Translations under genes and position numbers: made by a program | Assembly: GCF_036321535.1 (NCBI RefSeq) | Contig: NC_087436.1 | Span: 67,272,001 to 67,336,000, forward strand | Direction of reading: 5' to 3' | Length of the DNA stretch: 64,000 nucleotides | Source: Camelus dromedarius | Taxonomy: Eukaryota | Notes under the pieces: model-generated | Databases searched by the model: none | What the model saw: the letters and a program-made list of their open reading frames with translations, nothing else | What the model was told of the DNA's origin: nothing | In this document: positions 12,085 through 64,000 of the stretch, one piece after another | Position numbering within the stretch: the stretch's first letter is position 1 | How the letters are laid out: every line of letters begins with the position of its first letter

Positions 12085-12380
12085 CTTTTTTTAATTTTTA
12101 TGTTTTTTAACATTTTTTAGTTGAGTTATAGTCATTTTACAATGTTGTGTCAAATTCCAGTGTACAGCTCAATTTTTCAGTTATACATGAACATACATAT
12201 ATTCATTGTCACATTTCTTTTTTGCTGTGAGCTACCACAAGATCTTGTATATATTTCCCTGTGCTATACAGTATAATCTTGTTTATCTATTCTACATAAG
12301 CCTGTCAGTATCTACAAATTTTGAACTCCTAGTCTGTCCCTTCCCACCCGTCCCCCTCTTGGCAACCACAAGTTTGTATT
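12085..12380 (-). mobile_element. Young 5'-truncated L1, 3' UTR only (~290 bp)
   Basis: T-rich tail then L1 3' UTR highly similar to the copies at 42.5 kb and 57.7 kb. TSD tttgtatttgg(a/g)cattct at 12067-12084 and 12373-12390. Confidence 0.92.
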
Positions 12381-22564: not shown

Positions 22565-24278
22565 TTTTTCTCTACTTTGTTTATTTATGTTTTATAGTCA
22601 TTTTACAATGTTGTGTCAATTTCTGGTATACAACATAATGCTTAAGTTATATATGTACATACATATATTCCTTTTCACATTCTTTTTCATTATAGATTAC
22701 TATAAGATACTGAATCTTATAGTTCCCTGTGCTATACAGAAGAAACTTGTTGTTTACCTATTTTATATATAGTAGTTAGTATTTGCAAATCTCGAATCTC
22801 AGTTTATCTCTTCCCACCCCTTTTCCTCCCTGGTAACCTTAAGTTTGTTTTCTATGTCTGTGAGTCTGTTTCTTATTTGTTAATAAGCTCATGAATGTCT
22901 TTTTTTTTTTTTTTTTTGGATTCCACATATGAGTAATATCATATGGTATGCTTCTTTCTCTTTCTGGCTTACTTCACTTAGAATGAAGATCTCCAGGTCC
23001 ATCCATGTTTCTGCAAATGGCTTTATTTTATTTTTTATGGCTGAGTAGTATTCCATTGTATAAATATATCACAACTTCTTTATCTATTCATCTGTCTGTG
23101 GACATTTAGATTGTTTCTATGTCTTGGCTATTGTAAATAGTGCTGCTGTGAATATTGGGGTGCATATATCTTTTTGAATTAAGGTTCCCTCTGGATATAT
23201 GCCCAGGGGTAGGATTGCTAGATCATATGGTAAGTCTGTTGTTAGACTTTCGAGGAGTTTCCATACTGTTTTCCATAATGGCTGCACCAAACTATATTCC
23301 CACCAGCAATGTAGGAGGATTCCTTTTTCTCTACACCCCCTCCAGCATGTATCATTTGTGGACTTTTGAATGATGGCTATTCTGACTGGTGTGAGGTGAT
23401 ACCTCATTGTAGTTTTGATTTGCGTTTCTCTGATATTTAGAGATATTGAGCATTTTTATCATGTGCCTCTTTAGCCATTTGTATGTCTTCATTGGAGAAT
23501 TACTTGTTTACATTTTATGCCCATTTTTGGATTGGGTTCTTTGTTTTGTTTTGTTTTGTTTTGTTTTGTTATGAAGTTGTATGAGCTGTTTATATATTCT
23601 GGAAATTAAGCCCTTGTCAGTTGCATCATTTGCAAATATTTTCACCCATTTCCTAGGCTGTCTTTTTTATTGTTTCTTTATGATTCTCTTTGCTGTACAA
23701 AAGCTTATAAGTTTAATTAGGTCCCATTTGTATATTTTTTGCTTTTATTTCTTTTGCCTGGGTATGCTGCCTGAGGAGAACATTGCTAAGATTTGTCAGA
23801 AAATGTTTTGCCTATTTTTTCCTTCTAGGGAATTTATAGTGTCTTTTCTTATGTTTAAGTTTTTAAGCCACTTGCTGAAGAGACTGTCTTTTCTCCATTG
23901 TATATTCTTGTCAACTCTGTCGAAGATTAATTGATTATAAGTCTATGGATTTATTTCTGGGCTTTCTATTCTGTTCCATTGATCCAGATGTCTGTTTTTG
24001 TGCCAATACTACACTATTTTGATTACTGTAGCTCTGTAGTATTGCCTGAAGTCAAGGATGGTTATTACTCCAGCTTCATTCTTTTTCTTCAGTATTGCTT
24101 TGGCAATTCTGAGCCTCTTGTGAATCCACATAAATTTTAGAATTATTTGTTTTAGTTCTGTGAAAATTGTCATGGATAATTTCATAGAGATCACATTAAA
24201 CCTGTAGATTTCTCTGGGTAGTATGGTCATTTCAACAACATTAATTCTTTTTATCCAAGAGCATGGGATGTCTTTCCA
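22565..24278 (-). mobile_element. 5'-truncated L1 (~1.7 kb; ORF2 C-terminus and 3' UTR)
   Basis: Minus-strand ORF fragments [13 protein letters not shown]...CWRGC..LLHCWWE and [18 protein letters not shown] are L1 ORF2. TSD ccaaatg(g/t)ctaattctt at 22548-22564 and 24279-24295. Confidence 0.96.
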
Positions 24279-42445: not shown

Positions 42446-43426
42446 TTTTTCCTCTACTACATTTATTTTTTATTGAATTATAGTCAGTTTACAATGTTGT
42501 GTCAATTTCCAGTGTAGAACACAATTTTTCAGTTATACATGGACATACATATATTCATTGCTGCATTCTTTTTCGCTGTGGGCTACCACAAGATCTTGTA
42601 TATATTTCCCTGTGCTATACAGTATAATCTTGTTTATCTATTCTACATATGCCTGTCAGTATCTACAAATTTCAAACTCCCAGTCTGTCCCTTGCCACCC
42701 CTTTTCCCCCTGGAAACCACAAGTTTGTATTCTATGTCTATGAGTCTGTTTCTGTTTTGTATTTCTGTTCTTTTTTTTTTTTTTTTTTAGATTCCACATA
42801 TAAGCGATCTCATATGGTATTTTTCTTTCTCTTTCTGGCTTACTTAGAATGACATTCTCCAGAGACATCCATGTTGCTGCAAATGGTGTTATGTTGTCCT
42901 TTTTTATGGCTGAATAGTATCCCATTGTATAAATATACCACACCTTCTTTATCCAGTCATCTGTTGGTGGACATTTAGGCTGTTTCCACGTCTTGGCTAT
43001 TGTAAATAGTGCTGCTATGAACTTTGGGGTGCAGGTGTCTTTTTGAAGTAGGGTTTCTTATGGATATATGCCCAAGAGCAGGATTACTGGGTCATATGGT
43101 AAATCTATTCCTAGTCTTTTGAGGAATCTCCATACTGTTTTCCACAGTGGCTGCACCAAACTGCATTCCCACCAGCAGTGCAGGAGGGTTCCCTCTTCTC
43201 CACAGCCTCTCCAGCATTTGTCATTTGTGGACTTTTGAATGATGGCCATACTGACTGGTGTGAGGTGATACCTCATTGTAGTTTTGATTTGCATTTCTCT
43301 GATAATTAGTGATATTGAGTATTCTGTCCAATCCAAAAATGGATTGACCTAAACAAGCAATTCTCCAAGGAAGAAATACAAATGATCAATAGGCACATGA
43401 AAAAATGCTCAGTATCACTAATTATC
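42446..43426 (-). mobile_element. Young L1 with 5' inversion (twin priming), ~1 kb
   Basis: Minus-strand ORF2 C-terminus ([17 protein letters not shown]...CWRGCGE; MWYIYTMGYYSAIK) to ~43320, then plus-strand L1 ~43346-43426. TSD acagag(t/c)attcatt at 42432-42445 and 43427-43440. Confidence 0.95.
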
Positions 43427-43786
43427 ACAGAGCATTCATTCTTAATTGAATCAAGCATCTAAAATTTGTAAACATAACACAGTAGCATTACATTTAAGCC
43501 TTAACAAAATGAGACAGTAATTTTAAATATGTTTGGTTAGGTTATGCTATATATTATATTATCAGAGTTAATAGGATGAAAAGTTTGCGTTATTTTTAAG
43601 AGAAAAAGAGGAACTCTTTTAGGGTATTTCTCCAGAGTCCTAAAGAGTGTTGCTCCATCTACTCTCCATGTAGTGATCTCTCATGGAAATGTCTCTGAAA
43701 CTATATTTAGCATGGTTCACATTTTTATTTAGGAAAAAATGTTTCCTGTGGGGAAAACTTAACTCTGTGACATTGGATAGTATCTT

Positions 43787-57686: not shown

Positions 57687-57920
57687 TATTTTTTTAAACA
57701 TTTTTAAACATTTTTGATTGAGTTATAGTCACTTTACAATGTTGTGTCAAATTCCAATGTAGAGCACAATTTTTCAGTTATACATGAACATATATATATT
57801 CATTGTCACATTTTTTTTGCTGTGAGCTATCACAAGATCTTGTATATATTTCCCTGTGCTTTACAGTATAATCTTGTTTATCTATTCTACATATGCCTGT
57901 CAGTATTTACAAATTTTGAA
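57687..57920 (-). mobile_element. Young 5'-truncated L1, 3' UTR only (~230 bp)
   Basis: Highly similar to 12085-12325. T-rich tail. TSD only weakly discernible (caatatga / cgatatga). Confidence 0.9.
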
Positions 57921-60772: not shown

Positions 60773-62781
60773 TTTTTTTTTAAATCAAAGTATAACCGGT
60801 TTACATTGTTGTGTTAATATCTGGTGTGCAGCATACTGATTCAGCTATATATATATTCCTTTTCATATTCTTTTTCATTATAGGTTATTACAAGTTATTG
60901 AATATAGTTCCCTGTGCTATACAGTAGGGCATTGTTGTTTATCTATTTTGTATATAGTAGTTTGTATCTGCAAATCCCAAACTCCCAGTTACCGCTCCAT
61001 CCTCCCCTCTCCCCACTGGTAACCACAATTTTGTTTTCTATGTTTATGAGTGTTTTTGTTTTGTAAATAGGTTCAATTGTCTCATTTTTTTCAGATTCCA
61101 CATTTAAGTGATGTTGTATGATATTTTTCTTTCTCTTTCTGGCTTACTTAACTTAATATGATGATTTCCAAGTCCATCCATGTTGCTACTAACAGCATTT
61201 TTTATGGCTGAGTAGTATTCCATTGTATAAATCTGTCAATGGATATTTAGGTTGCTTCCATGTCTTAGCTATTGTAAATAGTGCTGCTATGAGCATTGGG
61301 GTGCAGGTATCTTTTTGAATTAGAGTTTCTTCCAGATATATGCTCAGGAGTGGGATTGCTAGGTCATAAGGTAAGTCTATTTTTAGTTTTAAGAGGAATC
61401 TCAGAAACCATTTTCCATAATGGCAGTGCCAAGCTACATTCCCACCAGCAGTGTAGGAGGGTTCCCCTTTCTCCACAGCCTCTCCAGCATTTATCATTTG
61501 TGGGCTTTTTAATGCTGGCCATTCTGTCTGTTGTGAGGTGATACCTTATTGCAGTTTTGATTTGCATTTCTCTAATAATTAATGATTTTGAGCATTTTTC
61601 ATGTGCCTTTTGGTCATTTGTATATCTTCATTGGAGAAATGTTTATTTATGTCTTCTGCCCATTTTTGGATTGGGTTGTGTGTTTTTCTGTTATTGAGTT
61701 GTATGAACTGTTTGCATATTTTAGAAATTAAGTCCTTGCCAGTCGCATTATTTGCAGATATTTTCTCCCATTCCTTAGGTTGTCTTTATGTTTTGCTTAT
61801 GGTTTCTTTGCTGTACAAAAGCTTGTAAGTTTAATTAGGTCCCATTTGTTTATTTTTGCTTAATTTCTATTGCCTGGATAGACTGCCTAGAAGAATATTG
61901 CTAAGATTTTTGTCAGAAAATATTTTGCTTATGTTTTCTTATAGGTTTATAGTGTCTTGTCTTATGTTTAAGTCTTTAAGCCATTTTGAGTTTATTCTTG
62001 TGTATAGTGTGAGGGAGTGTTCTAACTTCATTGATTTACATGCGGCTGTCCAGCTTTCCCAACATCATTTACCTAAGAGACTGTCTTTTCTCTATTGTAT
62101 ATTCTTGCCTTCTTTGTCAAAGATTAATTGACTATAGGTGTGTGCGCTTATTTCTGGGCTCTCTATTCTGTTCCGTTGATCCATATGTCTGTTTTTGTGC
62201 CAATACCATGCTATTTTGATTACTGTAGCTCTGTAATATTGTCTGAAGTCTGGGAGGATTATTTCTTCAGCTTTATTCTTTTACTTCAGTATTGCTTTGG
62301 CAATTCTGGGTCCTTTGTGATTCCGTATAAATTTTAGGATTATTTGTTCTAGTTCTGTGAAAAATATCCTGGGTAATTTGATAGGGATCACGTTAAATCT
62401 ATAGATTGCTTTGGGTAGTCTGGCCATTTCAGGCAATATTAATTCTTCCAATCCACGAGTATGGGGTATCATTTAATTTCTTTTAATTATCTTTAATTTC
62501 CATAATCAATGTTTTATAGTTCTCCATGTGTAAGTCTTTTACTTCCTTGGTCAGGTTTATTCCTAAATACTTTGTTTTTGTTTTTGTTTTTGTTTTTTGA
62601 TGCAATTTTAAAAGGGATTTTTTTTTTTTACTTTTCTTTTCTGAAATTTCATTAGTTAGTGTAAAAAAATGCAACAGATTTCTCTGTGTTAATCTTGTAT
62701 CCTGCTACCTTGCTGAATTCATTTACTAGCTCTAGTAGATTTTTGTGGAGTCTTTAGGGTTTTTCTGTATATAGTATCATG
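60773..62781 (-). mobile_element. 5'-truncated L1 (~2 kb; ORF2 C-terminal half and 3' UTR), older subfamily
   Basis: Minus-strand fragments [30 protein letters not shown] and [23 protein letters not shown] are L1 ORF2. Frameshifted. T tail at 60773. TSD only degenerate. Confidence 0.95.
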
Positions 62782-63290: not shown

Positions 63291-63416
63291 ATTCTTAATC
63301 AGTACAAAGAAATACGGGCAACTTAGTTCTACTCCTTAAAAAGGCTAATGAATAAGAAAACAGAATCACCTTGAATCTATAATAAAAGTTAAACTTAAAG
63401 AACAGAATCAATTTTG

Positions 63417-63713
63417 TGTGGACCTTTTAGGGTTTTCTATACATAGTATCATGTCATCTGCATATAGTGACACTTTTGCCTCTTCTTTTCCAATTTGGAT
63501 CCCTTTTATTTCTCTCTCTTGCCTGATTGCTGTGGCTAGGACTTCCAAGACTATGTTGAATAGGAGTGGTGATAGTGGGCAGCCTTGTCTTGTCCCAGAT
63601 TTTAGTGGGAAGCTTTTGGGTTTTTCACCGTTCAGTACTATGCTGGCTGTAGGTTTGTCATATATAGCTTTTATTATGTTGAGATAAGTTCCCTCTATAC
63701 CCACTTTGGTGAG
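63417..63713 (-). mobile_element. Isolated internal L1 ORF2 fragment (reverse transcriptase core), no 3' UTR or poly(A)
   Basis: Open 98-aa frame with [18 protein letters not shown] and YADD. Perfect 15-bp TSD acagaatcaattttg (63402-63416, 63714-63728). Confidence 0.95.
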
Positions 63714-64000
63714 ACAGAATCAATTTTGAATGTTTGACAAATAAAAATAGGTTATGATAAACTTAACTAAGTTGTTACAGCTTTTGTAATGGGAAGAAGA
63801 AAGTAAGCATTGTTTTTTGCCCTGTTAACGCTTGAAATTTTGTATTTCATAACAATTTTGAGGCTTTTTTCATTATGTGAAATCATGGTGAACTCTAGCT
63901 GCTCATACAAAAGAAAGCTTGATGTGAAAGAATAGAGAAAATGAGGGCAGTTACTGGCCATCTGCAGTTTGTATGTATTAGCAGCTACACATGCATTTAT

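Follow-up and report, generated by a model that had tools for sequence, protein, structure and literature searches.

A stretch of 64,000 nucleotides from the Camelus dromedarius genome (the window) contains, at 63417..63713 on the reverse strand, a 297-bp fragment of L1 ORF2 that is truncated at both its 5' and its 3' end and enclosed by a perfect 15-bp target-site duplication. Judged from its junctions only, this tailless fragment very probably arose by internal priming on an L1 RNA. The type has already been described in humans; the locus is a clean further example of a known by-product, real but ordinary.

Anatomy, coding content and age of the fragment

The duplication consists of identical 15-mers at 63402..63416 (the copy at the L1 3' junction) and 63714..63728 (the copy at the L1 5' junction), spaced 312 bp apart. 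Since the neighbouring bases differ on both sides, 15 bp is the complete length of the repeat, and the perfect target-site duplication claimed in a preliminary description of the window (15/15 bases) stands. In a chance control, matches of at least 13 bases occurred in 0 of 712 mismatched junction pairs. The entire space between the repeats is occupied by a single colinear piece of L1; there is no pair of inverted and non-inverted segments. The fragment contains neither a 3' UTR nor a poly(A) tail, as had been described, and breaks off 1,980 nt short of the L1 3' end, measured on a reference copy. The four A residues at its 3' junction are the target's own, and no further A accompanies them. 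A poly(A) signal normally lies 10-35 nt ahead of the A-tail. The AATAAA nearest to the break starts at base 204 of the 297, and a retrocopy of a prematurely polyadenylated L1 RNA was rejected as an origin, as there is no signal near the break and no tail.

The insert matches positions 91-165 of the 205 in the Pfam domain RVT_1 (E 4.8e-14), and its open ORF2 frame carries QGCPLSP and YADD, in agreement with the preliminary description. It begins directly past the DAEKAFD motif that the family sequence encodes upstream, which we take to be the first catalytic motif of the reverse transcriptase. The description of the insert as covering the reverse transcriptase catalytic core is thus correct for QGCPLSP and YADD but not for DAEKAFD, which is absent, so that only part of the core is included. 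The fragment lacks a promoter and a complete reverse transcriptase and is therefore a dead-on-arrival fossil.

Compared with the majority sequence of 116 spanning copies, a set that includes copies picked as most similar to it, the insert carries 5 changes in 297 positions (1.7%). The median copy differs at 10 positions; the insert is at the young end of its L1 family. Selection maintaining the open frame was rejected, since three of the five changes alter the protein and two are silent, and since 25 of 29 close copies have the same frame open and without indels. At the camel rate of 2.5e-8 per five-year generation, as used in PMC8605555, the insertion is about 3 million years old, an estimate with a wide error, as it comes from five changes and depends on which element was the source, and one that becomes older at slower rates. 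For an insertion of this age, a 15-bp repeat without any mismatch is expected. The argument that the perfect duplication and the open frame mark a recent event is weak, given the distance from the majority sequence and the equally open close copies; the fragment is probably a few million years old.

Junctions and probable internal priming

L1 homology spans 63412..63714, so that five bases of the left repeat and one base of the right repeat are common to L1. The borders of the fragment are ambiguous by five and one bases for this reason. The five bases at the 3' junction (63412..63416, reverse strand) read CAAAA in the L1 sense and open the duplication; they form a microhomology between the target and the L1 RNA and are the putative priming site. 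Of 29 close genomic copies, 28 read CAAAA where L1 continues beyond the break and one reads CAAGA, and CAAAA occurs at 37 of 3,772 positions (about 1%) of the reference L1 copy. At the opposite end, a T precedes the 5' junction in 29/29 copies, giving the 1-bp microhomology at base 63714. The best 40 genomic matches, the locus itself aside, show 96-97% identity and mostly span the interval 63412-63714. On the forward strand, which would be the nicked one, the endonuclease-type target at 63724..63730 can be read as TTTTG/AA or as TTTT/GA. As either side could have supplied the last G of the repeat, the nick may be TTTT/GA, with a duplication of 14 bp. TTTT/G is counted among the endonuclease sites in Table 1 of PMC12016303. 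An L1-endonuclease-like site had been proposed here and holds in both readings, and the remark that the TTTTG of the repeat matches L1 at the junction is borne out by the same five bases in the close copies.

From the anatomy of the fragment and its junctions, which is directly observed, we infer the nick, the priming, the synthesis and the other enzymatic steps as follows. The L1 endonuclease (ORF2p) would have nicked the target at TTTT/GA, releasing a T-rich DNA end that would have paired through 4-5 bases with the internal CAAAA of an L1 RNA rather than with its poly(A) tail. cDNA synthesis would then have proceeded over about 300 nt before 5' truncation, with a second nick at a distance of 14-15 bp and subsequent fill-in producing the duplication. 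Four features support the earlier proposal that priming took place internally, about 2 kb before the L1 3' end: 5 bp of microhomology at the 3' break, a site of endonuclease type, a duplication of 14-15 bp and the lack of any tail A. ORF2p insertions have duplications of 12-18 bp and primers of 5 nt are extended by ORF2p (PMC10830420), while four matching terminal bases are enough for priming according to PMC3649969. The legend in PMC4859970 describes internal priming in the same terms, with a T-rich nick pairing with internal A-rich RNA.

Comparison with known systems places the locus among tailless, internally primed L1 insertions, with which it shares 3' truncation without a tail, a duplication, and complementarity between the target and the RNA at the break. 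Canonical target-primed reverse transcription is matched in the endonuclease site and the 12-18-bp duplication but not in the poly(A) tail. Endonuclease-independent L1 insertions are likewise truncated at both ends and tailless; they have neither duplications nor endonuclease sites, as described for Alu in PMC5402677, whereas both are present here. A close likeness is to the tailless retropseudogenes of PMC5322556, which are 3'-truncated, have no A-tail, carry a duplication and sit in targets that can pair with an A-rich site inside the RNA. Those were human, unlike the camelid host of this copy, and their consensus TT/WAAAAWW is close but not identical to the present target, in which the break base is C or A and four A residues are followed by TT. 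The internal priming insertions of L1 and Alu reported by Srikanta et al. 2009, as cited in PMC5402677 and PMC4859970, also combine 3' truncation with a duplication; the endonuclease is reportedly not always needed in that class (via PMC5402677), and at the present locus the site is of endonuclease type and filler is absent. Twin priming, which yields 5'-inverted L1s, similarly involves internal priming with microhomology (PMC2912911), but here a second, tail-primed segment is absent and the strand that would directly prime the fragment is the one with the endonuclease site. In bioRxiv 2024.08.27.596794 and in PMC12016303, the term "internally primed" is used for twin priming.

Tailless copies elsewhere in the genome

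We compiled 159 loci from four genome searches, excluding the window's own locus, and removed five duplicates to leave 154. The sample includes five loci (L138, L139, L144, L145 and L242, on C67 and C6) that share a 5' end and resemble one segmental duplication, probably of a single insertion. The L1 3' end is reached by 132 of the 154 copies, some of which carry later insertions or deletions, and 11 are inverted segments of twin-primed elements. Six copies (3.9%, 95% interval 1.8-8.2%) are tailless with a duplication, defined as 11-18 matching bases with one mismatch allowed; repeats of at least 11 matches arose in 1 of the 712 mismatched junction pairs. They are L012/L049 (C37 near 10.943 Mb), L030 (C12 near 43.956 Mb), L085 (C18 near 31.384 Mb), L107 (C16 near 21.131 Mb), L114 (C37 near 38.668 Mb) and L115 (C15 near 47.764 Mb). 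Two further copies (L113 and L222) are tailless without a repeat, and one (L121) is nested.

The six copies contain 0.4-1.9 kb of L1 each and show partial 3' pairing; L012 and L115 both have TGGA at the break against TAGA in the target. When the opening five bases of each duplication are compared with L1 in register for these six and the window's fragment, 26 of 35 positions agree. The expectation is 12.2, and 26 was reached in 0 of 100,000 draws; the test is biased upward because the duplications were delimited by maximal extension. Endonuclease-like or near-consensus sites were seen by eye in five of the six others (TTCTT/AA, TTCT/AA, TTTCT/AC, TTTGT/AA and TCTGT/AA), the exception being L114. 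The break positions of the seven cases are all different.

Several other sampled copies have unusual ends. L019 (C15 near 39.566 Mb), L028 (C3 near 62.194 Mb) and L225 (C3 near 107.695 Mb) are 3'-truncated and preceded by poly(T) or a tiny reversed L1 3' end, resembling the twin-priming variants with a 5' homopolymer in PMC2837659; L019 has a 5' poly(T) and no resolved repeat and is counted separately among the 154. L211 (C21 near 5.734 Mb) is a long L1 that ends about 180 nt before the 3' end; its 10-bp repeat, identified by eye, opens with T residues, and the element's 5' junction includes a few bases that resemble L1 just beyond the element's 3' break.

The preliminary description had placed the fragment in a rare class. 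This is not supported, as six of 154 other copies share the build and 5,593 human L1 forms truncated at both ends and carrying duplications were reported by Noll et al. 2015 (PMC5322556, from a relaxed screen with data not shown). Since a tail was detected in 90.7% of human germline L1 polymorphisms (PMC12016303), a tailless share of 4% is not clearly outside the human range. A limited literature search found no report of tailless L1s in camelids, and supplements may list such loci. The suggested search for other tailless fragments with the same end found none: a single exact-pattern genome search, by estimate sensitive to about a quarter of such events, detected no second copy breaking at this point. 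Its eight pattern matches (18 with a reversed-pattern control) were the locus itself, five chance matches outside L1 and two ordinary long L1s, which speaks weakly against a hotspot at the break.

Alternative explanations and implications

A separate, older L1, truncated at its 5' end, lies on the same strand at 60777..62781 and is 77-79% identical to the young family. The two are not one L1 split by the intervening 630 bp of non-L1 DNA; this was rejected because the fragment is 97% identical to the family, the two pieces overlap by 42 nt in L1 coordinates, and the duplication encloses the young piece only. Around the older element, no duplication longer than 6 bp was found. Further L1 3' fragments of differing ages occur in the AT-rich window at 12103-12380, 22593-24278, 42466-43431 and 57701-57892, and an Rfam search of the window returned 0 matches.

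The main competitor of internal priming would be a normal, tailed L1 of about 2.3 kb, 5'-truncated on insertion, that later lost its last 2 kb, from the internal CAAAA to the point where the duplication starts. An end-joining deletion could use the same 5-bp microhomology, and internal deletions do occur in the sampled copies L071, L078, L226 and L231. Noll et al. (PMC5322556) raised the same ambiguity for Alu monomers and regarded internal priming as hard to separate from recombination between internal and terminal A-runs. Such a deletion could have ended in any register of the tail, yet it would have had to stop precisely where the duplication begins, with every tail A removed, and the same exact ending would be required at the six further loci, which makes this history improbable. 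We give a lower chance, and consider it quite unlikely, to the patching by L1 RNA or cDNA of a staggered double-strand break that arose without the endonuclease. PMC5402677 cites a proposal that internal priming can occur at staggered breaks in the absence of the endonuclease, and L114 has no consensus site; the window's fragment, in contrast, has a TTTT/G site, a 14-15-bp duplication and no filler DNA.

The older neighbour offers another route: it might have retained the 2 kb at the 3' end of the incoming RNA in an RNA-DNA hybrid, which would have set the priming point. Its orientation and its distance of 630 bp would suit this, as would a 5' end lying 42 nt inside the break. However, its identity of merely 77-79% speaks against such a hybrid, no comparable neighbour was present in the flanking DNA examined at any of the six other tailless copies, and 5' ends in the same 100-nt zone around YADD are common (6 of 53 sampled copies, a post hoc count). 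We hold this guidance to be very unlikely and take the position of the older L1 as coincidence; if it were true, resident L1 copies would shape the structure of insertions beside them. An assembly artefact is hardly credible. In its favour, the coverage by reads and contigs stops at the left junction. The left flank was present in 19 of 24 public runs, all from one organism and 14 of them possible sources; two runs of another organism had almost none of its words. Four runs were assembled on the left flank and through the left junction: X16, X20 and X22 gave no contig, and X15, a run not flagged as a potential source, gave one. This contig shows the left junction in its filled form, without other letters; on the insert side it has fewer than the 31 letters required for bridging, and no empty allele was seen. 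The insert is also marked by five substitutions, and none of the other copies among the 116 has more than two of them.

Internal priming is thus the reading we prefer for the fragment. The locus can be used as a presence/absence marker and alone is of little weight. The sample carries more: about 4% of young copies spanning mid-ORF2 lack a tail but have duplications, and most of these sit at endonuclease-like sites, with three to five of five bases paired. The figure is valid for copies reaching mid-ORF2 and not for all insertions. Insertion callers that demand a poly(A) tail would miss such copies, and the sample points to internal priming as a regular side path of L1 in this lineage, not a rarity.
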